64,000 nucleotides of DNA from a virus (IMGVR_UViG_3300038360_000413), one strand, 5' to 3'. Counted from the stretch's first letter, positions 32,860 to 63,726 are shown. Numbers and translations are program-made. The notes: a model not told the origin generated them from the letters alone.

Positions 32860-32870
32860 CATAAAATTAA

Positions 32871-34365: not shown

Positions 34366-36486
34366 ATGAATATTAATTCGATCTTTTTAAGACGAAAGAG
34401 CAAAATATGTCTTCCTGAAATAACAGAAGGCAATAAAGCAATCCCGGTTACTTACTTAGCAGCTATGTTAAGAAATTTCGCAGGGCTTGGATTTATATTT
34501 ACAACAAATGTAATAGAACGTCTAAAATATCTTCCAGTATCTGTACTTGAAGATTTCTATCTAAAGACTATGATTACTCTTAAACAACTAAAAGGTGTTA
34601 AAACCTACGAACCGATGTATCCTAATTTCCCTAAACAGGTAATGGAGGCATCCTCAGCCGAGCTCTTTATGAATGCTATAGTGCAGTATTGGTTTGGCGC
34701 ATATCCAGCATATGAAAAAGAAGAAAGACTTCCTCTTTTTGAAGAAACTGAAATAACTGTAATAGATTTAGGAACTCCAAAAGAATTTGGAAAAATCTTT
34801 CATGACATGATGTCTTCAAATGCCTCTATATCAGAATTAGATAAAAAAGAACTAGACTGGTTCTTTGCAAATCTTACTGATTTGGCATGTCGAATGGTTC
34901 CAGCTGCAATGCCACAAAAAGAAATTTTGGCATATACAGTAGGACTTATTTCTAAATATGTTACTGGGAACATTGAACTTATTATGCCTCTCTTTACAAC
35001 TGCAACAGATGTATTGAGATTGGCTGTGGCTTTGTCTGACGGCGACGTTAGTTTAGCTAAGAAAACTAAGTTCAGAAACTTTACTCGACCAGAACGTAGA
35101 TTGTTCTTAGCAGTTATAAATTCTCTAAATTACTACAATCTTAGAGAAAATATGCAGCAATACAGAGAACCGTGGTTACGTATCGCTCATCAACTACATC
35201 CAGGTGAAGTTCAATTCAAATATCCAACTGCCTTTAAAGCATTTCATGCCCTTCGAAACGAAAACAAAGTGAGAACTTTTGATGGTAAGGTGGAAATAGC
35301 ATTTAAGAACAAAAACTGCGTCGATCTGTGCACGCTTTTGGTCAAAAGACCGGGTGTTTTTGCACGTACATTGGACAGAATTCTTAGAAGTTTTCCAAAC
35401 GAACACGCCCAGATTTTGAGTGAATTTGCAACAGTTGCAGCTGAGGCATCTACTCCTGTACTAATACAAACATTAGCACATATTCGTAAACGTTCGAATA
35501 CTCCTCAATTGCGTTCTTATGTTCCTAAGGGAAACATTGGTAAAGTACAAATTCATGACAATACTTTTACAGACTTACCTTCTGACACTGTTAAAAGTGC
35601 AGAAGCTGTGTGTGAAAAATCTCTTGAAACTAAGTTTAGTGACTTAGATGAAATGCAAACAGTATTCTTAGATGATAACATGGTAGACTATGTAATACCT
35701 TTCGGACAACGTTCAGCTTCTGAAGCTCTACGCATAATTCCAAGAGGATCTCATATGCCATTAGCTGATAAAAGCACCCTACGTCTTTTCACTTGGTGGA
35801 AAAATAACACTGGAAGAGTGGACGTGGATTTATCAGTGCTACTATTTCGTGAGGATTGGAGCACATATGGACGTTTATCATACACAAATCTAAGAGATGA
35901 TAACATACGATCTTATCATAGCGGAGATATCACAAGTCCAGCACCTGCAGGTGCTTGCGAGTTTGTTGATATCAACAAGCAGTCAGCACTACGCAAAGGA
36001 GCCCGATTTGTATTAATGAATCTTCTTTCCTACACACGTCAGCCATTCAAAGATTTCGAGTGTATAGCTGGTTGGATGGACAGAGACGGTATACAATCTG
36101 GTGAAATTTTCGAACCAACTACGGTTACACAGAGATATGATGTAAACAGTGATGTTAGAGTACATATCCCAGTGTTATTTGACCTAAAAGAGAACAAAGC
36201 AATTTGGATCGATTTGGCAATCACTGATAAAATTAACCGAGGCGGAAATAACGTTGAATCTAATGCTGTGACTTTAAACAGGTTAGCGCAAGTAATAACC
36301 GAAAGAGGTTACTACAATTTGCATGAACTGTTCAAATTACACACAAGAGCTCGTAAGGGTAAGTTTGTAGAAACACCCGAAGAAGCGGACGTAGTTTTCA
36401 CTGCTTCCGACTATAAATCTGAAAATAAGCAAACGGTGGTAACGCCGTATGACACTGAAGTAATCGCTGCAGAGTTTCTTCAGTAA
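34366..36486 (+). CDS. large hypothetical protein (706 aa) immediately upstream of the tRNA-like array
   Basis: Long uninterrupted ORF followed by hairpin terminator at 36521-36540. Confidence 0.55.
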   Translation: MNINSIFLRRKSKICLPEITEGNKAIPVTYLAAMLRNFAGLGFIFTTNVIERLKYLPVSVLEDFYLKTMITLKQLKGVKTYEPMYPNFPKQVMEASSAELFMNAIVQYWFGAYPAYEKEERLPLFEETEITVIDLGTPKEFGKIFHDMMSSNASISELDKKELDWFFANLTDLACRMVPAAMPQKEILAYTVGLISKYVTGNIELIMPLFTTATDVLRLAVALSDGDVSLAKKTKFRNFTRPERRLFLAVINSLNYYNLRENMQQYREPWLRIAHQLHPGEVQFKYPTAFKAFHALRNENKVRTFDGKVEIAFKNKNCVDLCTLLVKRPGVFARTLDRILRSFPNEHAQILSEFATVAAEASTPVLIQTLAHIRKRSNTPQLRSYVPKGNIGKVQIHDNTFTDLPSDTVKSAEAVCEKSLETKFSDLDEMQTVFLDDNMVDYVIPFGQRSASEALRIIPRGSHMPLADKSTLRLFTWWKNNTGRVDVDLSVLLFREDWSTYGRLSYTNLRDDNIRSYHSGDITSPAPAGACEFVDINKQSALRKGARFVLMNLLSYTRQPFKDFECIAGWMDRDGIQSGEIFEPTTVTQRYDVNSDVRVHIPVLFDLKENKAIWIDLAITDKINRGGNNVESNAVTLNRLAQVITERGYYNLHELFKLHTRARKGKFVETPEEADVVFTASDYKSENKQTVVTPYDTEVIAAEFLQ

Positions 36487-36547: not shown

Positions 36548-36618
36548 ACGGAGGTAGCTCAACAGAAGAGCGATGGGTCGCTCCCTGCGTGCTGGTTCAA
36601 ATCCAGCCCTCCGTGCCA
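36548..36618 (+). ncRNA. tRNA-like gene with truncated anticodon arm, CCA encoded
   Basis: Acceptor ACGGAGG/CCTCCGT, D-stem GCTC/GAGC, T-arm GCTGG-TTCAAAT-CCAGC, G-CCA; only 18 nt where anticodon arm plus variable should be. Confidence 0.35.
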
Positions 36619-36758
36619 AATTCGCTGGCTATTTTATTGCTTCCTTCTAAACGCCCAGTGGGCACTTGAATAAGGATCAAACAAAAAACAGTAATAAAGA
36701 TTTCCAGCAAACAATTCGTTTGGCTATATGATAGTTTCCTTCCATAATTTGCCTTAAA

Positions 36759-36830
36759 AGCAAGCGGTTGCGGGTTCGAGTCCCGTCACCATCTTCGGGT
36801 GGTGTAGCTCAATTGGTAGAGCTCTTAATC
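36759..36830 (+). ncRNA. permuted tRNA-like module U1
   Basis: T-arm GCGGG-TTCGAGT-CCCGT, CACCATC-TTCG-GGTGGTG closed acceptor, D-arm GCTC-AATTGGTA-GAGC. Confidence 0.45.
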
Positions 36831-37138
36831 CAACTGTCGTGATTTCCAAACACCCTTTTACTAGATCGTTTAATAAGTACGCTTCGTACTTAGAGATACT
36901 TGCAAAAGATCTTCAACGTAAAGAACTTCTCTTCGATGTCCTGACGGGACATCAGAGAAATTCACAAAGACCTCGTACAAACCCCGGCAACCAGGACTTT
37001 TCCTTCCAGATTCATGAACTCTCTACGAGTGTCCATCAAATCGTTACAGGAAACTACCTGGTGCCAGCTTTGTACATAGCCTTTTAGTAGTAAACAAATT
37101 TCGTTTGGCTATTTATAAACTTCCTTCTATAAACGCAA

Positions 37139-37209
37139 TCCGGGGGTCACAGGTTCGAATCCTGTCAGGCTGCTTCGGCGGTCTGTAGCTCAGTTGGCAG
37201 AGCACCGGA
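37139..37209 (+). ncRNA. permuted tRNA-like module U2 (best preserved)
   Basis: TCCGG (anticodon 3' strand), GGGTC variable, ACAGG-TTCGAAT-CCTGT T-arm, CAGGCTGC-TTCG-GCGGTCTG closed acceptor, D-arm GCTC-AGTTGGCA-GAGC, CCGGA (anticodon 5' strand). Unit closed by GTTTGG (37103) pairing with CCAAAC (37238). Confidence 0.55.
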
Positions 37210-37289
37210 CTTTAAAGTAACCCAGTTTATAAGATTTCCAAACACCCTTTTTATATTTGTTGGCCATATAATATGCTTCCTTCTATTAT

Positions 37290-37362
37290 AATCAATGATG
37301 ATGTAGGTTCGATTCCTACCTTCCCCACACCGAGGGGAAGTGGCGCAATTGGTGACGCACAT
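37290..37362 (+). ncRNA. permuted tRNA-like module U3
   Basis: GTAGG-TTCGATT-CCTAC, CTTCCCC-ACACCGA-GGGGAAG closed acceptor, D-arm GCG-CAATTGGTGA-CGC. Confidence 0.45.
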
Positions 37363-37430
37363 GACATGTAGCAATTATGATTTCCAACTATTTTTTTTGT
37401 TTGGCTATGAAAAAGCTTCCTTCTATTATT

Positions 37431-37480
37431 ACAGGTTCAAATCCTGTATTGCTCATTGAGCGATGATTGGTTAAACTAGC
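37431..37480 (+). ncRNA. permuted tRNA-like module U4 (truncated 5' half)
   Basis: ACAGG-TTCAAAT-CCTGT, ATTGCTC-ATT-GAGCGAT. Confidence 0.35.
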
Positions 37481-37820
37481 TTTTTCGATTTCCAAACATT
37501 CTTTTACTAGACCGTTTAATAGGTACGCTACGTACTTAAAGGTAAGCAAAATTACCTTAAACAAAGAACTCTCCCAATATCCACGAGCGGGACCTAAGAG
37601 GTCCAAGATGGATATTGACAGAATTCACAAGAAATACAGAAACCTACTGGCCGGTCAATCCAGGCCTAGGCGACGAGTCAGCCCTGAGCGAACAGTGCCG
37701 ACGTCTTGCCCGGGCCACGGACCACCGGCAACTATGTTTCCGAATCTCTTTTAGTAGTAACACGACAAATTTTAACTTGTTTGGCTATAAAGAAACTTCC
37801 TTCTAAAATGGTTAATAAAT

Positions 37821-37880
37821 CGGTAGCATTGCTATCGGTTTTGTAGGTTCAAACCCTACTCCGCGCTTCGGCGCAGTAAA
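37821..37880 (+). ncRNA. permuted tRNA-like module U5 (anticodon-like hairpin, T-arm, closed acceptor)
   Basis: CGGTAGC-ATT-GCTATCGG hairpin, GTAGG-TTCAAAC-CCTAC, CCGCGC-TTCG-GCGCAG. Confidence 0.35.
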
Positions 37881-38014
37881 ATCAGTTTCTTTGATTTCCA
37901 AACACCCCTTTCGAAAGGCTATTTAATGACTTCCTTCTACTTCTGTTGCCGCCTAACGGCGGTATACTTTCTATGTATAATGAAACCAGTTATTAAGATT
38001 TCCTTTCACCTTTT

Positions 38015-38095
38015 GCTCCCATAGTCACAACGATCTTCTAAGTCGTTATAGTGTAATTGGATCTGTAAATGTAGGTTCAAGTCCTACTGGGAGTG
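38015..38095 (+). ncRNA. atypical tRNA-like gene: anticodon arm (loop CTTCTAA, TCT) 8 nt after the acceptor; D-loop-like TAGTGTAATTGGA after it
   Basis: Acceptor GCTCCCA/TGGGAGT and T-arm GTAGG-TTCAAGT-CCTAC; same non-canonical arm order as the gene at 33523. Confidence 0.35.
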
Positions 38096-38231
38096 CAACG
38101 TCTGGCTATTTTATTGCTTCCTTCTATTTTAGCTCTTAAATGAGCACTTGAATGCTAACCAAAAAAATAGTAATAAAGATTTCTAGACGACTTTTTAAAT
38201 AAAAAAAACAAACAACTACACGGAGGAAACA

Positions 38232-38853: not shown

Positions 38854-38928
38854 ACGAGTGTCGATTTAACTGGCTAAGTCTGCGGATTCCAAACCCGTTA
38901 ATTCAAGGTTCGAATCCTTGCACTCGTG
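38854..38928 (+). tRNA. tRNA-Trp (anticodon CCA)
   Basis: Acceptor ACGAGTG/CACTCGT, D-stem GATT/AGTC, loop TTCCAAA, T-arm CAAGG-TTCGAAT-CCTTG. Confidence 0.55.
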
Positions 38929-38945
38929 CTAACAAAGGAAGAATT

Positions 38946-43369: not shown

Positions 43370-43750
43370 GGGGGCGCCCGGTATCGATTATTATACGACG
43401 CGAGAATGGCTCAAGCAGAGTTATTGGCTTAACCAATTAAAACAAACAACTGGCAAAACGCAGTTCGCATTAGCGGCGTAAAGTAACATTTACGGTTATC
43501 GCTCACGTTCTTCTTCTTGACTCCGATAGTTCTGAAGAGCGTCATTTATCGGATCTGTCCAACTGTTTGGGGACGAATAAATAAAGGCACAGCGTTCCAA
43601 AGGTAAAGGGAAGTACGATAACTAATAATAGAGCTCCCGAGATCATTTGTTCTTTTGATTACCTCGTAAACATTGCAAAAGAAATAAGCTTGTAAACAAC
43701 CACCTTGATACTATAATAAGACGGGAGTTCGACTCTCCCCGCCTCCACCA
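43370..43750 (+). ncRNA. ssrA: tmRNA (SsrA)
   Basis: 5' GGGGGCG pairs with CGCCTCC 375 nt downstream, followed by A-CCA. T-arm GGGAG-TTCGACT-CTCCC. Internal tag reading frame GGC AAA ACG CAG TTC GCA TTA GCG GCG TAA (..KTQFALAA*) at 43452-43481. Confidence 0.8.
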
Positions 43751-46410: not shown

Positions 46411-46617
46411 ATGAATAAAAAGAAGCAAAAAGCACTCAATAATCTCAGAACACAAATGGGGTTTCCAAATTCCGACATTCTTGGCGGAAAAAAGAGATTA
46501 GAGAATCAAGTGCGCACAATGCTTGAACGCTCTTTTGAAAAAGAAAGCGAACCTTCTAAAGTTATTGATCAATTTATGGAAACCTTCAAAAAAGAAGTAA
46601 TTGACTTTTGGGCTTAA
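46411..46617 (+). CDS. hypothetical protein
   Basis: 68-aa ORF. Confidence 0.35.
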   Translation: MNKKKQKALNNLRTQMGFPNSDILGGKKRLENQVRTMLERSFEKESEPSKVIDQFMETFKKEVIDFWA

Positions 46618-47321
46618 CCCTCATAGGCTTTTAATATTTTTGCGATTAAACCATGTCGTACAATATCTTCTCTAGTAAATTCCAAAGTACCTATTTCATT
46701 TAAAGCACTAAGACGTTCTATAGCGTTGCGTAATCCGTTATCGTATCCTATATCTGATTGTCTAATATCCCCGGCTACAATCATTTTTGAATCCTGCCCT
46801 ATACGGGTTAGAAACGCTTTCATACTAGACTGGGAGGAGTTTTGTGCTTCGTCATATACAATGACAGCGTTATCCCAAGTAAGTCCTCTAAAAAAAGTTA
46901 ATGGAACTTGTTTAATTACACCTGAAGCTCTTAATGTTTCAGCACGATCGTTTCCAATTAACTTTTCTAAATTTTGAAAAAACGGAAGCATAAAAGGTCC
47001 AATTTTATCATCCAAGTTTCCTTTTAAAAATCCAACTCTTTCATCATCTACCGGAACAAGCGGACGACATAATACAATTTGCTCAATGTTGTTGTCTTTA
47101 CTTGATAACGCTTGTAAGGCATATCACATAGTAATAAACGTTTTGCCAGTTCCTGCGGGACCTGTGCAAAATGTTATGTCATGGGTATCGATTGTGTCAA
47201 ATAATAACTTTTGGTTATCAGTTTTGAACTCTAATGATAGTCCATGGTCAGAACCATTTTTGGGATAAAATAATCTTCTCACCTGTTCGAGGGCTTGTCG
47301 TTTGTTTTTACATTCTTGCAT
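46614..47321 (-). CDS. phoH: PhoH-like ATPase interrupted by a single in-frame TGA (47124-47126)
   Basis: N-terminal fragment ends GPAGTGKTFITM-TGA; the same frame continues YALQALSS...LDDKIGPFM into the C-terminal ORF (VIVYDEAQN, IVAGDIRQSD). Confidence 0.6.
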
Positions 47322-47332
47322 AGCTTCTCCAT

Positions 47333-47923
47333 TTAACGATTATTGGGTTTTTTATATGTATAAATGGGCACCTCTCTGTTACTTACAAGATTAGGTGACC
47401 TTGCTGGTCGTGGAACACTTGGAGTTGTGTTAATAGTTGGTGGTGGTGGTGGCGGCGGTTGTAAATGCGGCTGCAGTATTACCGACGGCTGTATCTGAAC
47501 ACTCGAATTAATTACATTGGGTTTTATTTTTATAGGTTTTTCGGGAGCAGGAGTAGGCTCTTTAGCTGTTTTTACTGTCTCTGCAAGAAACTTATGACAA
47601 TCTAAATATTTTTGGTAGGAGTCAACTAAGACTAATCCATAATATAATTCCGGATCATTTCCCTTGTATGGTCCAAGATGTTGAACTTCATCCCATCCGG
47701 AAAGAGCATCTATAGTTTTTATGATGCCAGTATTGTATCCTCAACTTTTGTTGGGATGATGGGTAATAATGTGGCATTTAGCGTCATTTGGTAGAAGAGT
47801 CATTTTGCCATCTAACACTTCAGCATTAATCTCATAACGACGCCAAACAATTTCGTATGTGTCAATTTTTTCAAATAATGGCATATAACATAATATACAG
47901 ATTCCTTCTGTCAATTCAAACAA
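47333..47923 (-). CDS. hypothetical protein with in-frame TGA (47741-47743)
   Basis: 60-aa ORF ...HHPNKS-TGA continues in frame for 136 more codons ([19 protein letters not shown]...PPPPPP...) to TAA at 47333. Confidence 0.45.
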
Positions 47924-47943
47924 CTTTAATAAGAAAGGTCAAT

Positions 47944-48819
47944 ATGCCAGATCCATATCAAGTACTGGGGCTCGACAGCACAGCTACTAAAGAAGAAGCA
48001 CAAAAAGCATTTAGAAATCTTGCTAAAAAATACCATCCTGACAAATCAGCCACTCTTAGTGAAGAAGCCCAACAGGAAGCAGAAGCTAAATTCAAAGAAA
48101 TTAACGAAGCCAACGAGCAAATTCAAAATCCTGAACCAAATCATGATATCCTTAATAACTCTTTTTGGAAACCACCGATTCAGCCTATACAGGAAGTACA
48201 TTTTGTAAATGTATCTCTTAAAGACGCTTATCATGAAAAAACCATAGCCTATCAGTATTATCAATACAACAAAGATCAGGTAAAAAGATGTGATACTTGT
48301 GGAGGAACTGGAACAATAGAAACACGAGAACAACATGGCCAAATGATAGCGATCAGCCAGAAACCTTGTAGCGGGTGTAATGGGAGAAAGATAAAAAAAA
48401 CAGGTACTCCTAAAAAAGTTGATTTAGAAATTCATTTGCAAAACAACTTACCAGCTCATTTAAACTTAGGACTAATTGGCAGCTACGATCCCAACTTTGA
48501 TAGACCGGCTCAGCTCATAATACAGTTTCAATATTCTCATGATGAAGAAAAATATCCTTATGAAATTCGTAATGGCAACATTATAACAAGTAAAGATATT
48601 AAGGTTAGTGAGTGGTTAGAGGGTGCTTCTCATACAGTAAGTATCTTTGATAAACAATTCGAAGTTAAATTAAAGGCTAGAAAGGACTTACAAAAACTTA
48701 GTAAGCTTCAGGGGCAAGGATTTGCAGGTAGAGATGTTTTAATACAATTTAAAATAATGGCTAATGACAAATTAGCATCTGATGCACTACTCAAAATGTT
48801 AAAAGAAGAAGGACTTTAA
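47944..48819 (+). CDS. DnaJ-like protein (J-domain plus Cys-rich zinc finger)
   Basis: DPYQVLGL...KKYHPDK J-domain with HPD; CDTCGGTG...CSGCNG. Confidence 0.6.
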
Positions 48820-48823
48820 AAGA

Positions 48824-48856
48824 GAAGAGGGCAAACCACCCTCTTCTTTTTTTTAT
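48824..48856. terminator. bidirectional rho-independent terminator
   Basis: GAAGAGGG-CAAACCA-CCCTCTTC hairpin flanked by A/T tracts between convergent genes. Confidence 0.6.
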
Positions 48857-48864
48857 ATTAAAAT

Positions 48865-51800
48865 TTAATAAAATTCACCCTTTTCATATTTAGTATTTCT
48901 TCCAAAGTTATCTCCATAGATATAAGCAGGTATCGGATCCTTACCTTTAAGGTTAGCATATAACCCTTTAGCTGCTCCAACAGTTAGCCCAGCTTTAACT
49001 CTGTTCGTACTGATTCTAGTTAACCAATCGTCAACATCTGTATTAAGAGTTTCTATAGATTTGAAGTAAGGAACATATTCAACTCTTTCTAATCCCTCTG
49101 CTTTACGTTTTTTATTAACAAATTTTATATTACTTACAGTCGTCTTATCACCACGTAGAAATCCGCTTTTTTCAGGAGCTTTAGTTACTTCCGCATTATC
49201 TGAAATTCCACGAATTACTGTTTCAAAAGTCTTTTTAAAGAAGTTGCCTCCATAAACCTTATGTGCTTCATCTACTAAATAACGTTGAGCAACTAAATGT
49301 CCTTTTAACTCTCCAAGTTCTTGTGGTTTGATAATGCCGTCACTTAGTACATCACCTTTGTCAATTTGATCATTTACTTTAATTAAAGGCAATCTACCAG
49401 AAGGAATTGTAAAGTCCTTATCATTCGCAGTACCATATCCCTCTATTCGTACATTATATCCGCCAGTCAGGTTCTTATCTATTTTCTTCACCTTTCCTCG
49501 TACAGTAGAAAGAGTAGCTTTTCCTGGTAATTTAACAGGAACTTTTAATAACTGCTCAAGACGAGGAAATCCAGCTTGAATTCCGCCTCCAGCAAGTGCT
49601 GATCCTCCGCTATGGAAGGATTGCATAACTAACTGTGTAGATCTTTCTGTAACGGATTGACTTTCTAAAACTCCAACATTGGTTCCCACAGAAGCAGGTT
49701 GTCCGTTTGGCATTAATCCATAACAGGATTGACATATACCTTCGACAGCCTCACAAGTCAAAGGACTGCGAACATATAATTGTACGCGATTTCTTTTTTT
49801 CGCTTTTCCAACAAGCGTAGAATCTACGATATCGTTTCGTTTACCAATTCCTGTTATTGTTTTTGCCAAATATCTATCTAGTACATCTGGAGAGTCTGTT
49901 TGTATATAAATTCCCTTTTTAGTATCACAATCTTCAACAGTAATTAGTAAACGACGAGTAACATTAAGAAGTGCCTTGTTGAGTGCTCCAGAATCCTGAG
50001 TATTTACAGCTCTATCTACAGTACCTTTACGCACAGCGTATAGCGTTGAATAATAAGAAGCTGTATCCAATCCTTCTCCATATGATTTTAATACAGGATA
50101 TGGAATTGGTTTGCCATGGACATCTGTCAGCACACCTGGCATAGAAATAATTTGTCGAACCGAATCCGGTTTACTAAACGATCCAGAACGTAACATAGTG
50201 AAAATATTGTTTTTTGATTTACTAAACTTCTTATTTTGAGCATCCTGAATTTTCAATGTCATTGCGTTTAGTTTCTTAATTCTATTTTCACCCTTAAATC
50301 TATTTATAGCAGGAAGTTCTTTTTCAATAATAGCATTTCTGTAAGAACGATCTACATCAAAATCTTTTATGGAAATAGTATTTGTATTTCTGTAAGCATA
50401 CATCGCGCCTAGATCCTTCCAAGATTCAATCACATCAGAGAAGTATTTATTATAACTCTTTGCAAGAGTTGTAAGTAATTTGCTAATAGTTTTTTTGTCC
50501 ATAGCACGATCATACTCTTTTAACTTGTCTGGAAGTTCGTGATTAATAAGATATTGACCGATAGTCATTTCTTTTCCATTTAAGAAAAACTGTTCAGTCC
50601 AGGAAATTTTAGCCTTCTTAGCAGCTTGAATGGTTTTATATTTTGCATCAGTTTTTTTAGTAATTAAACTTAACTGGTATAATCCATAAATATATTCTTG
50701 ACCCAATCCAGGCACTACAGAGTTATCTCCATGTTTAAATAAGATTTTACTAGGATACATATGACGAGCTTCAGCAATAGCTTCAGGGCCAACGGGTGTC
50801 ATAATCGACATTGTATCGCCATCATGATCTAAATTTAATCCTGCGTGAATTAACGAATTAACAGCAATAGCTTTTCCTTTTATTAAAACAGGTTTGAATG
50901 CTTGTATACTATGTTTATGTAAAGACGGAGCTCTATTTAATATAACAGGGCGTTTTCTAACAGCTTCTTTTAAAGCATTCCAAGCTAACGGTGATTCCTC
51001 TTCGTAGTTCTTTAAAGCTGCAACTGCTTTTAATCCAGATTGCTTTAATTCCTGTATAACAAAAGGTCTAAACATTTTATAAGCTAGCTTTCTTGGAATT
51101 CCAACTTCATCCAACCCTAAACTAGGTTCTACGGTTATAGTACTTCTAGCACTTACATCTTGTCGCTTAGACCATGTCTTGCCCTGTATTAGCCCAACTT
51201 TTGGCTTACCAATTTCTTTTAATATACCTTTATACTGCTCACCACCATAAGTAGTAGGCTCAATGAACCCCTGCATAGCTTTAACCGTGTTATATAGCGA
51301 GTATTCTGCTAAATCAACATCTTCCTTCGTTAAGTCCTTTTTAGCTCTTAACAAGCTTGTATTGATAATTCCAATATCTCTATAATGTTTATTAATATCA
51401 CTTACAGCTAAATCACCAGAAGGTAATGGCACTGTAGGTCGATATACTGGAGGAAGTACTGGAACATATTTCATTGTATAAGCTTCTTCTGGTCTTAGTT
51501 TAAGATCCTTTAAAGCTCTTAAATATTTTGCCAAAGTGTTTAACTTGTTTACATTGGTAGGAGGTGCGCTTACTAATTCATCAGTTACTGACAATAATTT
51601 AGAGTCTACTTTAATTGCACTTAATGCTGCAATAATTGCTTCCATTCCAGTTAGTTCATTTAGCTTTTCTTTACCTTCAAGAATATCTTCAAAACGTTGT
51701 TGTGTTAAACCAAGTATTTTCATGATCGCATCAGCATACATAGGATTAGAAATTCTAGAAGCCAGCTCAATGTGTGACCAATGTGTTCCTCTTACACCGC

Positions 51801-53526
51801 CAGTTATTTCACGATCGTATAGTCCGCCTTTTCGTGCAGTTAAATTCTTACCAATTAACAAAGCACCAGGATCAAGTAGCTTACCGTTTGATTTCTTTAA
51901 AACATCCTCATCAGTAAGTGGAGAGATGCGAAGTTGATTTCCTTTCTTAGTTATGTTTACACCAAGTCCTTCAATGTAATTTAACATTTTATCAAAAACA
52001 AAATTTCTTGCCGGCTTTGGAGGAACTAATCCAAATTGAATACTTCTCCAGTATTCCTCATTAGCTCTACCTTTTATTTCTCCAATTTCTTGTAAGTTCT
52101 TTTTTGCCCCATGAGCTAAGTATCCATATGTTTCCATCGTACCAACAGTTTGAGCACCTTTGCCGACCGGCTGCTCGTCAATATCGTAAGTACCTAAGTT
52201 TCTTACACCTTGTTTTTTCTTAACTATGTGACGCAATTTCATGAAGTACTGCTTACCAACAAAAATTGGCTTAGCGAAAGCTTTGCCGGATTTACCGTCT
52301 GTTAATATTTCGTCTGGCTCAATTCCATGCTTTTTTAAATCATTTATTACAGTCTGAGTCACATCCTCATCTGGATCTCTAAAGTTATCTACAATATAAG
52401 GCTTTCCAGTTTTAGCAGCTATTTTGCCAGCCGCTGTTTCTAAAATTTGCCCAATATTCATTCGAGAAGGTACACCGTGTGCGTTTAGCATTATGTCAAT
52501 AGGAGTACCATCCTCTCTATGTGGAGCTTCAGAATCGCCAATAATTTTAGTTACAATATATTTATTTCCATATCGTCCGGAATTTCCAGTCCAACTTGTT
52601 TTACCATTACGTCTTATATACACAACACCATTTTCTGTAGTAGGACAACCAACTTTTCCTGAATATTGTATAATTTCTTCAATTTGACCGTTTTGTTGGT
52701 GTACATGGCCATGGTTTACTTGGGGATAGTTTTTAGTACGAATTTGTCTTACATTCCATATATCATAATTTACTGCATTTCCCATCATGGTATCGCCCGC
52801 ATTAGCAACTTTTTGATAGGTAGCACTTTCTCCGACCTTTAAAAATAACTCCATAAGATCATCACGCATCTTAACACTACTAGTAGTAATAACAGCTTGA
52901 TTAGTTTTGTTAATATGACCGTCCCCTTTGATATAAGCATCTAAAAAATATTGTATTATTCTTGGGGAAGCATTTTTTATATTCTGAGGAACAAATTTTT
53001 CATGAGCATGACCAAAAGGTTTTAAATATAAATGAATAGCTTTACCATTAAAACGTATTCTATCTTTACAATAAATAGGAGTGAACCCACAATCTCTTAC
53101 CAAGACTGCAATCTCATCATAATATTCTTTATGTATAATGGGACTTTGGCAAATATCAGTTACATATCCGTTTGAAGTTTTGCAACTAGAACCTTCAGAT
53201 AAGTACCACCCCATTAGAGAGGCATATTCGAAAGTATCCATTTGTTTATCAAATTCTTTTGGAACTACTTTTTTCTTACTTTTCCAAGTTCCATTTTTAA
53301 CATAACGTACTCTTTTTCCTTTAATTTGATCAGGTTTTAAAAATTCATATTTTTTACTATAACGTTTTTTTACATACATTTTATGATCAAGAGTTACAAG
53401 TTGATCAATTAAAGTATTTGCAATGTGATACATAGGTCCTTCATGTTCATATAAATTAATAATAGAAGGTTCTTGATATTCAATTTTATGTGTTTTAGGA
53501 TTTAACGTACAAAATTCATCTTTCAT
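48865..53526 (-). CDS. rpoC: RNA polymerase: intein C-part, beta-subunit C-terminal region, fused to full beta' subunit
   Basis: Beta' catalytic motif NLDHDGD, trigger-loop and clamp regions; N-terminal 315 aa are intein sequence followed by SGRYGNKYIV...VPSRMNIGQILE (RpoB C-terminal region). Confidence 0.8.
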   Translation of the reverse strand: MKDEFCTLNPKTHKIEYQEPSIINLYEHEGPMYHIANTLIDQLVTLDHKMYVKKRYSKKYEFLKPDQIKGKRVRYVKNGTWKSKKKVVPKEFDKQMDTFEYASLMGWYLSEGSSCKTSNGYVTDICQSPIIHKEYYDEIAVLVRDCGFTPIYCKDRIRFNGKAIHLYLKPFGHAHEKFVPQNIKNASPRIIQYFLDAYIKGDGHINKTNQAVITTSSVKMRDDLMELFLKVGESATYQKVANAGDTMMGNAVNYDIWNVRQIRTKNYPQVNHGHVHQQNGQIEEIIQYSGKVGCPTTENGVVYIRRNGKTSWTGNSGRYGNKYIVTKIIGDSEAPHREDGTPIDIMLNAHGVPSRMNIGQILETAAGKIAAKTGKPYIVDNFRDPDEDVTQTVINDLKKHGIEPDEILTDGKSGKAFAKPIFVGKQYFMKLRHIVKKKQGVRNLGTYDIDEQPVGKGAQTVGTMETYGYLAHGAKKNLQEIGEIKGRANEEYWRSIQFGLVPPKPARNFVFDKMLNYIEGLGVNITKKGNQLRISPLTDEDVLKKSNGKLLDPGALLIGKNLTARKGGLYDREITGGVRGTHWSHIELASRISNPMYADAIMKILGLTQQRFEDILEGKEKLNELTGMEAIIAALSAIKVDSKLLSVTDELVSAPPTNVNKLNTLAKYLRALKDLKLRPEEAYTMKYVPVLPPVYRPTVPLPSGDLAVSDINKHYRDIGIINTSLLRAKKDLTKEDVDLAEYSLYNTVKAMQGFIEPTTYGGEQYKGILKEIGKPKVGLIQGKTWSKRQDVSARSTITVEPSLGLDEVGIPRKLAYKMFRPFVIQELKQSGLKAVAALKNYEEESPLAWNALKEAVRKRPVILNRAPSLHKHSIQAFKPVLIKGKAIAVNSLIHAGLNLDHDGDTMSIMTPVGPEAIAEARHMYPSKILFKHGDNSVVPGLGQEYIYGLYQLSLITKKTDAKYKTIQAAKKAKISWTEQFFLNGKEMTIGQYLINHELPDKLKEYDRAMDKKTISKLLTTLAKSYNKYFSDVIESWKDLGAMYAYRNTNTISIKDFDVDRSYRNAIIEKELPAINRFKGENRIKKLNAMTLKIQDAQNKKFSKSKNNIFTMLRSGSFSKPDSVRQIISMPGVLTDVHGKPIPYPVLKSYGEGLDTASYYSTLYAVRKGTVDRAVNTQDSGALNKALLNVTRRLLITVEDCDTKKGIYIQTDSPDVLDRYLAKTITGIGKRNDIVDSTLVGKAKKRNRVQLYVRSPLTCEAVEGICQSCYGLMPNGQPASVGTNVGVLESQSVTERSTQLVMQSFHSGGSALAGGGIQAGFPRLEQLLKVPVKLPGKATLSTVRGKVKKIDKNLTGGYNVRIEGYGTANDKDFTIPSGRLPLIKVNDQIDKGDVLSDGIIKPQELGELKGHLVAQRYLVDEAHKVYGGNFFKKTFETVIRGISDNAEVTKAPEKSGFLRGDKTTVSNIKFVNKKRKAEGLERVEYVPYFKSIETLNTDVDDWLTRISTNRVKAGLTVGAAKGLYANLKGKDPIPAYIYGDNFGRNTKYEKGEFY

Positions 53527-53589
53527 ACTTATTTCTTCTAAAAACTTTCAACCATCGTATGTTAAAAATTCAGTATCTGCACTAACACA
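52582..53589 (-). mobile_element. intein with LAGLIDADG homing endonuclease inserted in rpoB (contains in-frame TGA at 53548-53550)
   Basis: N-terminus CVSADTEF directly after extein GDKL; LAGLIDADG blocks LMGWYLSEGS and FLDAYIKGDGHI; C-terminus ...WTGN followed by +1 Ser. Host site corresponds to E. coli RpoB GDKMAGRHGNKG. Confidence 0.6.
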
Positions 53590-55929
53590 AAGTTTATCAC
53601 CCTCCTTGAAAGGGTGTTTTGATTTTATATAAATATCAATATTTCTACCGTTTATAGCCACATCAGTTACCACGCCTACATCATCCTCATCCCACTCAAT
53701 GACTCTTTTTTTATATTGATTATAAATAAATTTGTTTAATCTTTTTAAAGCACGTTCATTATCATCCAAATCTTTGGTTTCTAAAAGTGCAATAATAGTG
53801 TCACCAGGGTTCACAGTTTGCCCTACTTTAATAACTCCATTTTCTCCTAACTTTTTTTGATTGTCAGGAGTTAAAGTGCCAGGATACCAAGCAACAAATT
53901 TCTTTAAATCAAAAATCGTAAGCTTAGGAGAAAAGAAATGATTTATTTTATGTAGCATACTGTGACTTAATTTTTTAGCAGCGCTTTCAGTTATAACAGT
54001 TCCATCCTCAAAGTTATAACCCTTGTATGCCATATATGCTGTTGTTAAATTTTTACCCAAGGATAAAACACGTCCAGATGAATAATTATTTTCAGCTAAA
54101 GGAGTATCAGACTTAACCTCATCTCCCACTTTGACCGCTGGAGTAGAGTTTAAATATCCATCTTGATTAAGTGGAAAGTTATTATATAATCCTCTCTTTA
54201 TTTCTTCTCCATTTACATCAATATGAACATAATTTTTAGTAATTTTAGTAACAGTTCCTTTTTGCTTTTTACCAGCTTTGTTTGTGCCCAGCACGGGATT
54301 TAAATAGTTACCTAAGAGACTTTCATAAGTTGAAGAGTCATCTCTGCGTACTTGTACTAAAGGCGCCTCTTTCTCGTCGAGGGCCATGGCTTGTGTAACC
54401 ATTCGTGCAGCGGTAGCAGCACGGTTGCCCTGTACATTTTGTATGAAAGGTACTAAATTAGTAGCAAAAGAAAACATAGCCTTAGGAGAACGCATCCAGT
54501 AAGTTACTCGATCTGGAGTAATTTGCTCAAGCTTTCCTTTATACATAACTTTAACCGCTTGTTTTCTAGCTTTTGGTTTTGCCTTTACCAGTTCAAATTG
54601 ATCAGGATAGGCAACATAATTATTATAATATGTCAATGGATTAATATGAATTAGTTTACCTTCATTAGTATAGACAGGAGTTTTAAGATCAGTACCGTGT
54701 TTCTCAACTTCTGACGGCAATCCAATCGTTAATCCAACTTTTCCTGACTCCGGCGTCGATAAAACATCCAAGAATCCTAAGTGAGTTGGTTGTACTGAGC
54801 GCGCATCCATAGTCACAGCATGTCGACTTTTAATACCGCCCGTACCCATTGGAGTGGTTTTACGACGCTCACTTACAATTGTGACAGGGTTGGTTTGAGG
54901 AGGAGTAGAGGTCATATCTCCTGTAGTAAAGAACTCTTTAATCGCTTTGGTAAAAATACCAGCACTAATAATCTCCCTCACGTTGTCCTTTAATCGCATA
55001 CTACGTGCAACTTTCTTTTTTAAAGGCTCCTGACGAGTTTTAAAGTGCTCAACTAATAAATCATCGACACCTAATATTTTTTTAAAGATTAAACTATCTC
55101 TTTCGTCCGGCTTATCTTCGCTGCGCTGAATTTTTAATAACTTTAAAGATGCTGCTAACAATGTAGCCGCGTTAACCTTTTCATAAGATTTGCCTAAAGT
55201 TATTTTTGTTGTTTCAGGATCTACTTCTGTGTATTCATTAAAATACTTTTGTAAGCCTACAATAACTTCTCTAAAATCTTTAGGCTTGTTTTTAAATAGT
55301 TTTGTATAGATAGAGGTCATCTCTGATGCCTCAGTGTTTAAAGCGCCTGCAATGTTTTTGGCCAACAATTCCTCTCCCCAAGCCTTGGAAATGGAGTCTC
55401 GTGAAGCTCCCAATAGATTGAGTAAAGTCCATAAACGATATTTTCGATTAGATAAGATTAAGAAAAACTTTTCACTATGCGGATCTAATTGCATTTTAAA
55501 ATTAAAGCCTTGTGATAAATTAAATTCGCTTTCTAACTCTCCGTTTTGTTTTACTCTGGAATAAATGCCGGATTTACGACGTAGCTGGTTTACAGTAATA
55601 TATTCATTGCCGTCTATAATAGTGGTAAATCTGTTTGTAAGCTTTGGAACTGATCCAATTTTTGCTTTTGTTTTTTTACTAATAGTTTTTCCAGTTTTAA
55701 TATCAATTAAAGAAATATCAGCGTACATAGGCATCTGCCAGCTCTTTCTATTTAGTTTGGTTTTCTTTTGTAGCGGAAAATCGGCGGTAGGTAAAGTATC
55801 GTCTATCAATACATTAGAAATTTCTAAACGACGACCATTGGCTTCTATTGGAAAGTCGGTTTCTATTGCTTTTTTGATGGCTCTTTTTATTTGAGTATTT
55901 TGAGTATCATGTCTTAATGAATTGTCCAT
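53548..55929 (-). CDS. rpoB: RNA polymerase beta subunit, N-terminal about 780 aa, ending 13 aa into the intein at a TGA
   Basis: RpoB-like sequence through ...HPFKEGDKL then CVSADTEFLTYDG-TGA; same frame as the downstream ORF. Confidence 0.75.
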   Translation of the reverse strand: MDNSLRHDTQNTQIKRAIKKAIETDFPIEANGRRLEISNVLIDDTLPTADFPLQKKTKLNRKSWQMPMYADISLIDIKTGKTISKKTKAKIGSVPKLTNRFTTIIDGNEYITVNQLRRKSGIYSRVKQNGELESEFNLSQGFNFKMQLDPHSEKFFLILSNRKYRLWTLLNLLGASRDSISKAWGEELLAKNIAGALNTEASEMTSIYTKLFKNKPKDFREVIVGLQKYFNEYTEVDPETTKITLGKSYEKVNAATLLAASLKLLKIQRSEDKPDERDSLIFKKILGVDDLLVEHFKTRQEPLKKKVARSMRLKDNVREIISAGIFTKAIKEFFTTGDMTSTPPQTNPVTIVSERRKTTPMGTGGIKSRHAVTMDARSVQPTHLGFLDVLSTPESGKVGLTIGLPSEVEKHGTDLKTPVYTNEGKLIHINPLTYYNNYVAYPDQFELVKAKPKARKQAVKVMYKGKLEQITPDRVTYWMRSPKAMFSFATNLVPFIQNVQGNRAATAARMVTQAMALDEKEAPLVQVRRDDSSTYESLLGNYLNPVLGTNKAGKKQKGTVTKITKNYVHIDVNGEEIKRGLYNNFPLNQDGYLNSTPAVKVGDEVKSDTPLAENNYSSGRVLSLGKNLTTAYMAYKGYNFEDGTVITESAAKKLSHSMLHKINHFFSPKLTIFDLKKFVAWYPGTLTPDNQKKLGENGVIKVGQTVNPGDTIIALLETKDLDDNERALKRLNKFIYNQYKKRVIEWDEDDVGVVTDVAINGRNIDIYIKSKHPFKEGDKLCVSADTEFLTYDG

Positions 55930-56709: not shown

Positions 56710-57861
56710 ATGACAACTCAATTAGACAAATTTAAAAACGTAGAAAAACAACTAAACTCCTATTTCGTAGAAAGATTAGACGAAATTAGAGGATTGACAT
56801 TAGCACTATTGTCACAAAATAATGTGCTATATTTGGGACCTCCGGGAATATCTAAATCTTATTTAGTTAAAGCATGGTCTATGTGTATACAAGGTGCGAA
56901 CTACTTCGAACATTTGCTTACAAAATTTACAGTACCAGATGAACTTGCAGGACCTTTTTCACTAAGTGGATTAGAGAATGACAAGTTTATTAGAAATACT
57001 ACAAACATGCTCCCGGAGGCTCACATTGCTTTTCTAGACGAAATCTGGAAAGGAAATAGTGGGGTTCTAAACTTCTTATTAAAATTAGCAAACGAACGCA
57101 CCTTCTTTAATAATGGTGAAGAATGTGAAACTCCAATCTTAACAATAGTAGGAGCTTCAAACGAAATACCAGAGGACGATGACAACTTAGAAGCTTTACA
57201 GGATCGATTTATTATAAAGTTTATGGTAAAAGCAATCCAGGAACAGGAAAATTTTATTAAGATGGTATCAAGTGATGATTTTGTCGCAGAGACCTTCTTA
57301 ACTTTAAATGACATAGAAGAAGCACATACGCAAATTGCAAAAGTAAAAATGCCAAAAGAAATGTCAGAATTATTGTATGAAATTAAAGTAGAATTGAAAA
57401 ACGACGAGATAGTAGTTACCGACAGAACTCTAAAAAAAGCAGTTAACATTTTAAAATCCGAAGCTTGGCTAGACGGCTCTAAAGAGGTCAACGAAGATCA
57501 CTTTGATTGTTTGCAACATGTTCTTTGGACTGATCCAGATCACTCTCAAAAAACTGCAACAAAGTTATTTGGATTAGTAGATCCAGCACGCAGCAAGATG
57601 CTTGCAATAATGGATGATTGCAAAGATTTGTTCGCCGATTTAAGTAAAAAGAAAAAAGCGGAAACCAAAGAAGATTTACAAGAAATCATGGAAGGAATAG
57701 TTAAACTAAAAGCTGCTAAAGTAAGACTTACTGAGTTGTACAAAGAAGCAGTAAAAGCAAAAAACAGAAAGAAACAGCAAAAGACGGCTGAGCAAATGAT
57801 TAAACAAGTAAATGTTATGGTTGGAAAACTTGCTTCGTATGTTGGGTTTGATGATGTATGA
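56710..57861 (+). CDS. MoxR-like AAA+ ATPase
   Basis: Walker A LGPPGISKS, Walker B AFLDEIWK, MoxR-like length. Confidence 0.65.
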   Translation: MTTQLDKFKNVEKQLNSYFVERLDEIRGLTLALLSQNNVLYLGPPGISKSYLVKAWSMCIQGANYFEHLLTKFTVPDELAGPFSLSGLENDKFIRNTTNMLPEAHIAFLDEIWKGNSGVLNFLLKLANERTFFNNGEECETPILTIVGASNEIPEDDDNLEALQDRFIIKFMVKAIQEQENFIKMVSSDDFVAETFLTLNDIEEAHTQIAKVKMPKEMSELLYEIKVELKNDEIVVTDRTLKKAVNILKSEAWLDGSKEVNEDHFDCLQHVLWTDPDHSQKTATKLFGLVDPARSKMLAIMDDCKDLFADLSKKKKAETKEDLQEIMEGIVKLKAAKVRLTELYKEAVKAKNRKKQQKTAEQMIKQVNVMVGKLASYVGFDDV

Positions 57862-59563: not shown

Positions 59564-60484
59564 ATGAACTTATATGAACTATTGGAAACGACTAAAGAGC
59601 AATTAGAAACAATACTTGCTAACAAACATGAACATTATAAATCGTTTCCTATCGCCAAATCAAGTGGCAAATTAAGATGGTTAGATGCTCCTAGCGAGGA
59701 GTTGAAAGCCATACAATCTCAGTTACTAAGAAAAGTGTTTTACAACTTTGCCCCGCATTCAGCCGCTGTAGGTTTTAGAGTGGGCATAGGAGTGCGAGAT
59801 GGCGCCGAAAGACACTTAGGAAACAAAACGTTACTATGTATGGATTTGAAAGACTTTTTCAATTCTATTACATATAATAACGTCATCAAATTACTTTATT
59901 TTCTGACAGATAAACTAAAGAAACACATACCAGAATGGACATACACAGCAGATGACATTGAAACAATGGCAAAGCTGGTTACATACCACAAAGCACTACC
60001 ACAAGGAGCGCCGACAAGTCCAGCTTTGGCTAATTTAGTTTGTTGGAAACTAGATCAAGAGCTAGAAAGACTAGCAAAAGAAAATTCCCTAATATATACT
60101 AGATATGCAGATGATCTGGCATTCAGTCACAAGGACAGTAAATATGACATTCATCCCTTAATTGAAACAATTACAAAACTTATAGAGGGTGATGAGGTAA
60201 CTAATCTACTAGTTAATACCAAGAAAACACGCATTACTAGACCACATCGACGTATGACAGTCACAGGTGTAGTAATAAATGATAAGCTTAGTTTAGCTAA
60301 AAGCTTTAGAAAAAACTTAAGAGCTAGAATTCATAATATTAAAAAATCAGGTATTACAATATCTGAAAAAGAATCAGAAGTAATTAGAGGTCATGTAGAG
60401 TGGATATACTCAATAAATCCCCAAGAGGGACAAAAATTCCGTCAGGCCTTCTCCGGCATTTCAAAGGAGTCCCAGACGACTTAA
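59564..60484 (+). CDS. reverse transcriptase, retron-type
   Basis: RT motifs LPQGAPTSPALANL (QGxxxSP), YTRYADDLAFS (YADD), and retron-typical VTG (RMTVTGVVIND); 306 aa. Confidence 0.75.
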   Translation: MNLYELLETTKEQLETILANKHEHYKSFPIAKSSGKLRWLDAPSEELKAIQSQLLRKVFYNFAPHSAAVGFRVGIGVRDGAERHLGNKTLLCMDLKDFFNSITYNNVIKLLYFLTDKLKKHIPEWTYTADDIETMAKLVTYHKALPQGAPTSPALANLVCWKLDQELERLAKENSLIYTRYADDLAFSHKDSKYDIHPLIETITKLIEGDEVTNLLVNTKKTRITRPHRRMTVTGVVINDKLSLAKSFRKNLRARIHNIKKSGITISEKESEVIRGHVEWIYSINPQEGQKFRQAFSGISKESQTT

Positions 60485-62599: not shown

Positions 62600-63600
62600 G
62601 ATAGAAGTATGATTCGTATTTCAAGGTATGATAAATAATACCAAAAACAACAGAATATGCTAGTCTCTCCACTGGTGAGGTCGCGGCCTGTCCCGAACAG
62701 TTACACCATGGTTTACCTCGACGTGACACAAATGTTACAATAATTATTTTATAATTATTCGCAAAATATGAATCACTCCAAGAAACCAGGTTTCACTCTT
62801 CGACAATGTCAGGACTACACAGATCCTGCACCAGTTACGCACTAGATATTGCTGACTATAGTAAAGAACATAAAAAATCTTAGGTAAACGACTTGCAGTT
62901 TACTAGTCTTTTACAAGACAAACAATTACGATACGTATTTGTATAAATACAACCAAACATTCCACTGGTCTAACCCTGACGCGCGAACACCCCTTCAAAA
63001 ATTCGAATGGGTGTCCCCGTCTTACAGGAGTAAGACCCCAGGGAATGTTTTTCCTCGCCCCCCTCAAAATTTGAGGAGGCCTCGATCGGAGGTGACGTGC
63101 ACGCTCATCTAGAGGTACCCGGGTTTTCGCACTGCAGCTCACGGCGCGCCGGCAACGTTGATAGGTATCGATGGGATACCGACTGGAAAACCGTCTGCCG
63201 AAAATTCCTAACTAAGGCTGAAGAATAAGTTCCCCCTGGAACTCGCATGCTAGTAACGAAGCGAGCCCTCCCAGAAGGAGACCCACAAATTCTAGACGGC
63301 GCCAGCTGAAAACTAGACGACGCCGAGCTGACCTGGGAGACGGAGATGACGCCGTCGGAGTCCCGAGCGCTTAAGTGAGACGTAAGTTGCCTTCGAAGAG
63401 ACGGCACTTCCAGTGCGCAAGGATCCATGGTCCCTTGGCCGGGAAAAACCACGCACTCTTTTCTCCAGCTAGAATTCCGAACAAACCAGCAGGAAGAACT
63501 GAGGCCTAAGGGTTCCTGGTTAATGCGCAGTCCGCGGGTCCGGCAGCTAGCTGCGGGAGTCACGGGAACGCAGAAAATAAATTTTGTGCAAGTTGAATAT
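62600..63600 (+). ncRNA. large ORF-free region, strongly GC-rich in its 3' 600 nt: candidate large structured ncRNA
   Basis: No credible ORF; GC sharply above genome average from about 62980; many GC helices (e.g. GGGTCCGGCAGCTAGCTGCGGGAGTC); overlapping both-strand ORFs with biased composition look spurious. Confidence 0.35.
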
Positions 63601-63726
63601 TACCGATTTTAGAAGGAGACACCCGTTTCCTTTTTTTTATCTTAAAAATTATAGGAACATTGACTTATGTTATGGATATAATGTATATTAAAGTATAGAC
63701 TATTTTTAATAAACCAGAAAATTTAA

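Follow-up and report, generated by a model that had tools for sequence, protein, structure and literature searches.

Phages in which TGA is recoded from stop to tryptophan are known. In those described by Borges et al. (bioRxiv 10.1101/2021.08.26.457843) recoding is concentrated in the structural and lysis genes, and close relatives use the standard code. Phage-encoded tRNAs with the anticodon UCA were assayed in an E. coli extract, where 13 of the 13 tested inserted tryptophan (PMC12636597). Here we analyse in-frame TGA codons in a 64,000-nt stretch of the virus IMGVR_UViG_3300038360_000413 (the window; all coordinates refer to the whole of it), where they interrupt the genes of a PhoH-like ATPase, a hypothetical protein and an intein-containing RNA polymerase. 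Judged from alignments, these are tryptophan codons, and the three TGAs of the window are the sparse edge of a lineage-specific and module-specific recoding of TGA to tryptophan. As such recoding has already been described for phages, the present phage is a further example, and its three TGAs add another case. New are an apparently environmental lineage of about 200 kb with a recoded polymerase and intein, corrections to public gene calls, and a family of tRNAs with a CCA-bearing arm.

Compared by features alone, the phage resembles the code 4 phages 'Agate' and 'Jade' of Borges et al. The common features are TGA at tryptophan positions, a bias towards structural and lysis genes, another module readable with the standard code, standard-code relatives, low GC content, few TGA stops, and a suppressor tRNA(UCA) beside the lysis genes. 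Unlike the phages of that study, which come from the gut, the present lineage appears to be environmental, probably of aquatic or marine habitats (a cold seep in the case of one relative), and the phage is at least 210 kb long with a fused beta-beta' polymerase. Moreover, recoding here extends to the polymerase gene and to its intein, the variable arm of the suppressor tRNA is long, and neither tryptophanyl-tRNA synthetase (TrpRS) nor release factor 1 (RF1) was seen in the approximately 86 kb examined.

In Mycoplasma and Spiroplasma code 4 is genome-wide and host-encoded, and release factor 2 (RF2) has been lost. The likeness is that UGA means tryptophan and would be read by a tRNA(UCA); the difference is that here a single gene module of a phage is recoded, and some early genes still stop at TGA.

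The sequence examined is a composite of the head L007, the window and the tail L002 (81 kb), with about 5 kb of L064 in addition (about 86 kb in all); L numbers denote fetched flanks or sequence stretches of relatives. In the window, which has 36% GC, roughly 100 genes are tightly packed, most of them on the plus strand, and there are 26 tRNA genes and a transfer-messenger RNA (tmRNA). Its sequence was found within a 140-kb ENA contig, and one phage protein is also encoded on a JGI contig of 210,263 nt, the one with the endolysin. The source is a large phage, with a genome of 210 kb or more. No GenBank phage matched the region closely in a megablast search, and the sole relative found with PhoH in IMG/VR is 39% identical. 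Among the relatives found, L013 is the closest; this 16-kb metagenome contig from GenBank shares the gene order, and its PhoH is 67% identical.

In-frame TGA codons of the minus-strand genes

The genes and codons concerned are as follows.

46614..47321, minus strand: PhoH-like ATPase gene, 235 codons, intact across its TGA (tblastn and phmmer homologs span residues 1-235)
47124..47126, minus strand: in-frame TGA immediately following the Walker A motif (codon 66 of the PhoH-like gene); read as tryptophan
47333..47884, minus strand: hypothetical gene between PhoH and DnaJ, 183 codons, with a proline-rich C-terminal half; 60% identical to L013:5495-5968 over 158 amino acids
47741..47743, minus strand: in-frame TGA, codon 48 of the hypothetical gene; read as tryptophan (TGG in the L013 ortholog)
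48865..55929, minus strand: fused RNA polymerase beta-beta' gene, a single open reading frame (ORF) of 2354 codons with TGA as sense
52582..53589, minus strand: LAGLIDADG intein (PF14528, LAGLIDADG_3), 336 codons, in the GDKL/SGRYGNK motif of beta, between GDKL and SGRYGNK; extein junctions taken from the translation
53548..53550, minus strand: in-frame TGA, codon 14 of the intein and codon 794 of the polymerase ORF, in the motif DGWK; read as tryptophan

The original prediction placed three in-frame TGAs on the minus strand here, and translation bears this out, with at least four independent assemblies in agreement. The PhoH frame reads GPAGTGKTFITM-TGA-YALQALSS, the hypothetical gene HHPNKS-TGA-GYNTGII followed by about 135 further open codons, and the intein CVSADTEFLTYDG-TGA-KFLEEISM. 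The genes had been described as intact, with downstream sequence continuing a conserved protein; indeed, protein homology runs across each TGA. Standard-code gene callers cut the PhoH gene into pieces of 65 and 125 amino acids (PF02562). The polymerase is called as a single product of 2354 amino acids in one public assembly, and as products of 793 and 1553 amino acids in others. The hypothetical gene (47333-47884) matched no Pfam or PHROG family. The plus-strand ORF 47857-48819 is a DnaJ-like gene whose real start is at 47944, and thus the hypothetical gene does not overlap it.

One could regard the TGAs as true stops, caused by sequencing errors or fresh pseudogenisation, or dividing the polymerase at an atypical split intein with an N-fragment of 13 residues. 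Standard-code callers do give separate ORFs, and an ATG lies seven codons after the intein TGA. However, the bases at all three TGAs are the same in independently assembled contigs from at least four samples (ERZ4231641, ERZ4231637, ERZ4231634, ERZ27250158), which excludes a base miscall, an error that had been considered possible. These assemblies are 99.8-100% identical to each other and therefore give no information on evolutionary conservation. A naturally split intein or fractured gene was also rejected: the TGA occupies the conserved tryptophan of block A, and the seven codons before the next ATG continue this block (GWKxLxxI). Pseudogenisation, likewise raised earlier, is excluded by the reciprocal exchange of TGA and TGG with the relative L013 at tryptophan sites. 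Finally, a single gene module has no fewer than 23 such TGAs, essential genes included. True stops at these positions have next to no probability.

The residue encoded was assessed from homologs. The intein was searched against 1.8 billion representative proteins, and the residue aligned to its TGA (DGWK, block A) was tabulated for the top 150 homologs: it is tryptophan in 129, phenylalanine in 16, tyrosine in three, and leucine and serine in one each. The comparison with L013 gave four reciprocal TGA/TGG sites. The L013 ortholog of the hypothetical gene has TGG at the TGA site of the window (HPNKKWGYN) and TGA at its own codons 14 and 64, where the window phage has TGG; the L013 beta' subunit has TGA at one tryptophan codon that is TGG in the window phage. 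The only other site, in PhoH, is TGA/TAC, and none falls at a non-aromatic residue. The PhoH column is mostly tyrosine, histidine or phenylalanine in the closest 47 homologs, TAC being the codon of the nearest relative; glycine, serine and cysteine do not fit it. A further site lies past the window end in the endolysin gene (Amidase_2), where TGA stands at the near-invariant tryptophan of HPTRTW-SKR; six related phages likewise have TGA at this codon, and others have TGG. Altogether, 7 of 7 informative TGA sites are at tryptophan or aromatic columns, and none is at serine, cysteine or glycine.

Genetic code 25, in which TGA encodes glycine, was ruled out by the frequency of glycine, found in one of 120 aligned homologs at the PhoH column and in none of the 150 at the intein column. 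Selenocysteine had been proposed as another possibility. The TGAs align with tryptophan or aromatic residues and not with cysteine or selenocysteine, and folding of the sequence downstream of the three TGAs (z = -0.32, -0.21 and -1.72) gave neither a hairpin resembling a selenocysteine insertion sequence (SECIS) nor any shared hairpin. As no informative site aligned with cysteine, serine or glycine and no hairpin stood out, selenocysteine, code 25, pseudogenes and a split intein were all rejected.

The intein has more than 6000 homologs, many of them sharing the GDK(L)/C insertion site in RNA polymerases; a PDB sequence search with it found nothing. The fused polymerase is an intein hot spot of the lineage, as seen from the loci compared (window 48865-55929, minus strand; L013:1-3795; L017; L061). 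Some relatives have no intein and a single polymerase product of 2022 amino acids, one intein is in beta here, and others are in beta' of relatives (2525 or more and 2710 amino acids). In L013 a LAGLIDADG-containing insertion breaks the catalytic NADFDGD motif, with ends unlike those of a canonical intein (NADFDG/NSVN...LLTVQ/DTMSIM).

Distribution of TGA over the gene modules

In the 81-kb composite 111 genes were called with TGA allowed as sense, the minus-strand tally being corrected after the analysis of the endolysin and its tRNA. Internal TGA is absent from the 98 plus-strand genes, which have 240 TGG. TGA is the stop of about six of these genes; five lie immediately before the start of the window and one is within it:

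57859..57861, plus strand: TGA as ordinary stop of a MoxR-like early gene that overlaps the following one by ATGA; a sign that this genome gives TGA two meanings

Most plus-strand TGA stops are such ATGA overlaps, and TAA or TAG occurs within 1-21 codons after each. On the minus strand 8 of 14 genes have internal TGA and none ends in TGA; by our own hypergeometric arithmetic, the chance of all eight TGA-containing genes falling on this strand is about 6e-9. The recoding is confined to this one module, which comprises PhoH, the hypothetical gene and the beta-beta' polymerase in the window, and a portal-region block, the endolysin and the tail fibre beyond it. TGA is abundant in the collagen-like tail-fibre ORF of L064 on the same strand, with 13 TGA against 4 TGG; the L064 lysis cassette consists of a holin, small genes and the amidase. 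Combining the results gene by gene, there are at least 23 in-frame TGAs in the approximately 86 kb. Two of three TGAs first seen in an apparent N-terminal extension of the endolysin actually lie inside a tRNA(UCA) gene. In-frame TGA is missing from L015, L017 and L061, more distant relatives that share the fused polymerase; there TGA is the stop of 12-16% of genes.

The statement that the genome otherwise uses TGG for tryptophan thus holds within the window and fails beyond its end, where TGA is common in minus-strand late genes. The argument against a uniform code 4 is upheld, as early genes never use TGA for tryptophan and sometimes end in it. Rare programmed readthrough, which had been suggested, is right in that the TGAs must be decoded, and understated in that the recoding is module-wide and accompanied by a phage-encoded tRNA(UCA). 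TAG was considered as a second recoded codon and rejected: only two pairs of ORFs in the same frame are split by TAG, and both look like ordinary gene junctions.

The host itself might use code 4, as in Mycoplasma, with UGA as tryptophan and no RF2, the phage merely following it. This would agree with the rarity of TGA stops (about six among the 98 plus-strand and 14 minus-strand genes) and with the one public assembly in which genes were called with TGA as sense. However, it gives no reason for a partition in which none of the 240 tryptophan codons of the 98 early genes is TGA and TGA is common in late genes. It also leaves aside the early genes that stop at TGA in ATGA overlaps, the frequent TGA stops of L015, L017 and L061, and the tRNA(UCA) genes that the phage and its relatives themselves carry. 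Besides, the closest cellular homologs of the endolysin are from Bacteroidota, Ekhidna sp. among them, which use the standard code. A code 4 host is highly improbable. Rather, we infer that the host uses the standard code, since the early genes shun sense TGA and sometimes stop at it, the phage brings its own tRNA, and the endolysin homologs belong to Bacteroidota.

Thus it is very probable that the phage has two readings of TGA, an occasional stop in the early plus-strand module and tryptophan in the minus-strand module, with decoding by its own tRNA(UCA). That TGA is a tryptophan codon of the minus-strand module, and that a tRNA(UCA) gene has a conserved place beside the endolysin, we regard as shown. 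In the early module TGA is never sense and now and then a stop. In the minus-strand module it would be most likely read by a 99-nt opal-suppressor tRNA(UCA) competing with the host RF2, and as a result of this competition the recoded proteins would be full-length only once the tRNA is present. In a standard-code host the full-length polymerase, PhoH, structural and lysis proteins would have to await the suppressor. By analogy with a published model, such an arrangement may gate or time the expression of the RNA polymerase, late and lysis genes. As the polymerase gene itself needs suppression, what the code switch gates could be the entire middle and late programme and not lysis alone.

The tRNA(UCA) upstream of the endolysin and its variable arm

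Within the window no tRNA(UCA) was found by ARAGORN at default and lowered thresholds or by permissive Rfam scans, whose only finds were tRNA-Trp(CCA), a tRNA(CUA) of the amber type and several unusual tRNA-like elements. A search for a UCA-anticodon tRNA had been proposed as a check, and one was found past the window end, at a position upstream of the endolysin that is conserved in relatives:

L064:5173-5271, plus strand (= L002:20536-20634, minus strand): tRNA(UCA), 99 nt, adjoining the endolysin gene on its upstream side, some 8 kb beyond the end of the window
L066:162-257; L068:2978-3074; L072, L073, L078, L081, L082 and others: further members of this tRNA(UCA) family in relatives; family length about 95-100 nt

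The gene came to light in a custom scan for YUUCARN loops on a 5-bp stem, which matched a perfect anticodon arm, CAGGA-CUUCAAA-UCCUG, immediately upstream of the endolysin; the acceptor stem was recognised only with the tRNAs of relatives as a template. The 5' part is AGGCGUG / UAUA / D arm GCCAUG-AAGC-UAUGGC / A / CAGGA-CUUCAAA-UCCUG / AU, and the 3' part is variable arm GCGGUGA-UUCCAAC-UCAUCGC / UAU / GAGGG-GGCGGUA-CCUUC / CAUGCCU / G-CCA. Folded at minimum free energy, the tRNA adopts exactly this cloverleaf of five arms (-36.9 kcal/mol, against -26.4 +/- 3.5 in shuffles), and its core scores 30.5 bits with the Rfam tRNA model (gathering threshold 29 bits). It has a 7-bp acceptor stem with A1-U72, G2 and G3, the discriminator G73 and an encoded CCA. 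L065 and L066, whose endolysin is 73% identical, contain at the same position a clean 96-nt tRNA(UCA) with a long variable arm, and a tRNA(UCA) precedes the homologous endolysin in 12 of 40 IMG/VR loci. Long ORFs with mid-ORF TGA make up 31% at IMG/VR loci with this tRNA family and 5% at GC-matched endolysin loci without it. Only this control was used; random IMG/VR loci (28%) were discarded as uninformative because of long spurious frames in GC-rich DNA.

Annotation of such genomes is affected: standard-code calls split or truncate the polymerase, PhoH, endolysin and tail-fibre genes, and the tRNA(UCA) is hidden under a spurious ORF.

In bacteria the identity of tRNA-Trp is set by G73, the A1-U72 and G2/G3 pairs, and the anticodon C34 C35 A36 (PMC9976931). 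In the 12 tabulated tRNAs(UCA) G73 is present without exception and A1-U72 with G2 and G3 in most; the anticodon is UCA, and a CCA triplet occurs in the loop of the variable arm. As A1-U72, G2, G3 and G73 match the bacterial identity set, the tRNA(UCA) is likely to be the decoder and to be charged with tryptophan, and it is presumably expressed. The tRNAs of PMC12636597 are similar in being phage-encoded, with a UCA anticodon and G73, and, here probably, in reading UGA as tryptophan; the difference is that no cognate phage TrpRS was found here, as Pfam scans of about 40 proteins in the approximately 86 kb gave neither RF1 nor TrpRS. That study makes no mention of a long variable arm or CCA-bearing loop, and flags tRNAs longer than 100 nt as low confidence.

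The TGAs might also be read without a dedicated suppressor, at low efficiency, by a near-cognate tRNA-Trp(CCA), perhaps the phage's own (a leaky UGA, or a Hirsh-type tRNA):

38854..38929, plus strand: phage tRNA-Trp(CCA) with anticodon loop UUCCAAA; the loop sequence matches the variable arm of the tRNA(UCA); by its anticodon not a UGA reader

Indeed, the tRNAs-Trp(CCA) of the phage and of L013 both have atypical D stems, the phage copy having an unusual D arm and an A31-C39 mismatch, and the window itself is devoid of tRNA(UCA). On the other hand, a tRNA(UCA) gene lies 8 kb away, its position is kept among recoded relatives, and a tail fibre with 13 TGAs could not be made at a readthrough of a few percent per site. 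We consider this explanation very improbable.

Another possibility is that the tRNA(UCA) with its long variable arm is charged by seryl-tRNA synthetase (SerRS), or is a derivative of the selenocysteine tRNA (tRNA-Sec), and TGA is serine or selenocysteine. ARAGORN labels the tRNAs(UCA) of relatives 'SeC'; they score 37-40 bits with the Rfam tRNA-Sec model (RF01852). A long variable arm with G73 is the known SerRS identity set, and a D arm with a 6-bp stem and 4-nt loop is Sec-like. The UCA anticodon, long variable arm, D arm and G73 are indeed shared with selC and the tRNA-Sec-like allo-tRNAs (Mukai et al., PMC5389517). However, the acceptor has 7 bp and not 8, the tRNA-Sec scores are below the gathering score of 47, no SECIS-like hairpin is present, and the codons served are those of tryptophan, with all seven informative sites at tryptophan or aromatic columns. 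The acceptor and discriminator agree with tryptophan identity (PMC9976931), and the phage tRNAs(UCA) tested by others all inserted tryptophan (PMC12636597). The genes selA, selB and selD were not seen among the annotated genes of the approximately 86 kb, a part of the at least 210-kb genome. Charging with serine or selenocysteine is very unlikely.

Several points weigh against decoding by the phage's own tRNA(UCA). Its T loop, GGCGGUA, is non-canonical (usually UUCRAnU), its D stem has 6 bp with a 4-nt loop, and ARAGORN does not call it even at lowered thresholds; this copy could be impaired. Since the long variable arm and G73 also fit SerRS recognition, charging with tryptophan is deduced from the codon positions. 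The gene lies in a late lysis cassette, yet the polymerase gene needs its product, and this position does not obviously precede polymerase expression. About 86 of at least 210 kb were seen, and the remainder could encode another suppressor, a phage TrpRS or a release factor. The standard-code host is one that we infer, and the search for a host organism through NAPRTase across 185,000 genomes found nothing. The case for decoding as a whole is built from sequence.

The variable arm was compared in 12 tRNAs: that of the window phage, seven from endolysin loci of relatives and four from an IMG/VR pattern scan. It is a helix of 5-7 bp, almost wholly different in stem sequence between members, closing a loop of usually 7 nt, (G/U)UCCAA(A/C/G); one member has UCCAU. 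The statistics were obtained on a fixed-register alignment, as a full-length MAFFT alignment was too poorly registered at the 5' side for a covariance model. The helix is 88% paired, against 51% in shuffles, with compensatory changes at 7 of 7 pairs. The covariation score of 1.04 (0.25 in shuffles) was reached in none of 500 shuffles, and slid controls gave at most 0.22. In this alignment U-C-C-A is invariant, and the next A is found in 10 of 11 sequences. UCCAA equals the anticodon loop positions U33 C34 C35 A36 A37 of tRNA-Trp, and the phage's own tRNA-Trp has UUCCAAA.

A dedicated scan yielded 30 IMG/VR stretches with 16 distinct tRNAs, all of the CCA-loop architecture, and two more in gut-bacterial bins. 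Family-wide, over at least 30 IMG/VR contigs and these two bins, the stem has 4-7 bp and the loop mostly 7 nt, with U-C-C-A invariant and the A after it usually kept. In an unbiased IMG/VR scan the motif was present in 7 of 7 long tRNAs(UCA) that are not Sec-like (six UCCAA, one UCCAU) and in none of six Sec-like ones. Some caution is needed, as a genome scan requiring TCCAA also caught genuine tRNA-Sec genes; the motif is closed by a stem in a few of those caught and not in most. We found no published description of a variable arm with a UCCA(A) loop in the literature.

C34 is a major identity element of tRNA-Trp. The explanation that we favour, tentatively and at less than even probability, is that the UCCA(A) arm of these opal suppressors is a relocated or copied anticodon arm of tRNA-Trp acting as a decoy identity element. 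Together with A1-U72 and G73 it might let the host TrpRS recognise the tRNA after the change of CCA to UCA, with its loss of C34, and might also keep the tRNA from being taken as tRNA-Ser or tRNA-Gln. The arm could instead have been inherited from a Sec-like ancestor, bind another factor, or have a structural function. If the decoy explanation is true, an identity element would have moved, in nature, to a different arm of a tRNA and so freed the anticodon for recoding. Suppressor tRNAs face the problem that the synthetase reads the anticodon; the arm would then be a new natural solution to it, and a design principle for orthogonal UGA suppressors.

Other tRNAs, tRNA-like elements and neighbouring genes

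Scans of the tRNA cluster with lowered ARAGORN thresholds and permissive Rfam settings gave additional tRNA-like elements, none with a UCA anticodon. The elements of interest are:

17700-17769, plus strand: GC-rich tRNA-like element with an 8-bp acceptor, encoded CCA, minimal D arm and 8-nt anticodon loop CUUCCAAA; Rfam tRNA 25.3 bits, sub-threshold
29576-29646, 18929-19006 and 17536-17633, plus strand: weak tRNA candidates missed at default thresholds
36548-36615, 36730-36829, 37126-37236, 37334-37455 and 38015-38096, plus strand: tRNA-like cluster with two YrlA-like matches

The element 17700-17769 with the CUUCCAAA loop was considered as a UGA reader and rejected: the exact 16-mer of its anticodon arm gave only chance matches to non-tRNA sequences in IMG/VR, and the tRNA(UCA) was then found elsewhere. 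The weak candidates are a third tRNA(CAU) (28.7 bits), a tRNA-Ala(UGC) and a 98-nt tRNA-Arg(ACG)-like element. Several called tRNAs (Thr, His, Cys and Ile-UAU) are unusually long, 85-93 nt. The cluster 36548-38096 lies just downstream of an ORF of 706 amino acids (34366-36486) with no Pfam match. Its two matches to YrlA, a bacterial Y RNA-like family, are sub-threshold (42-43 bits, gathering 69), and one of its tRNA-like elements has a truncated anticodon arm.

A well-formed tRNA with the anticodon CUA, of the amber-suppressor type, is encoded in the early tRNA cluster (32786-32860, plus strand); ARAGORN labels it 'Pyl', and it scores 60.8 bits with the Rfam tRNA model. No convincing in-frame TAG for it was seen in the approximately 86 kb, and 6 of 8 TAG stops have a second stop within 0-5 codons.

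The plus-strand early module contains the tRNA cluster and genes of nucleotide and nicotinamide adenine dinucleotide (NAD) metabolism and RNA repair. The tmRNA (43370-43750, plus strand, 88.8 bits) encodes the tag peptide GKTQFALAA; the distant relative L015 also has a tmRNA, with a much longer tag. A reverse transcriptase gene (RVT_1; 59564-60484, plus strand) adjoins the fused polymerase gene and is kept in distant relatives (L015:1-502, L061:8544-9104). Located 2.5 kb downstream of it, at 62950-63650, is an island of about 600 nt with 54-57% GC in the 36% GC genome. The ORF over it (63105-63563, minus strand) has a translation rich in arginine, serine and proline. No Pfam match for this ORF and no Rfam family match for the island were obtained; possibly it is a structured RNA. 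Past the window end, amid the portal and other late genes, there is an actin-like gene (Pfam Volactin / MreB_Mbl; L002:17595-18644, minus strand), which is kept in L061.

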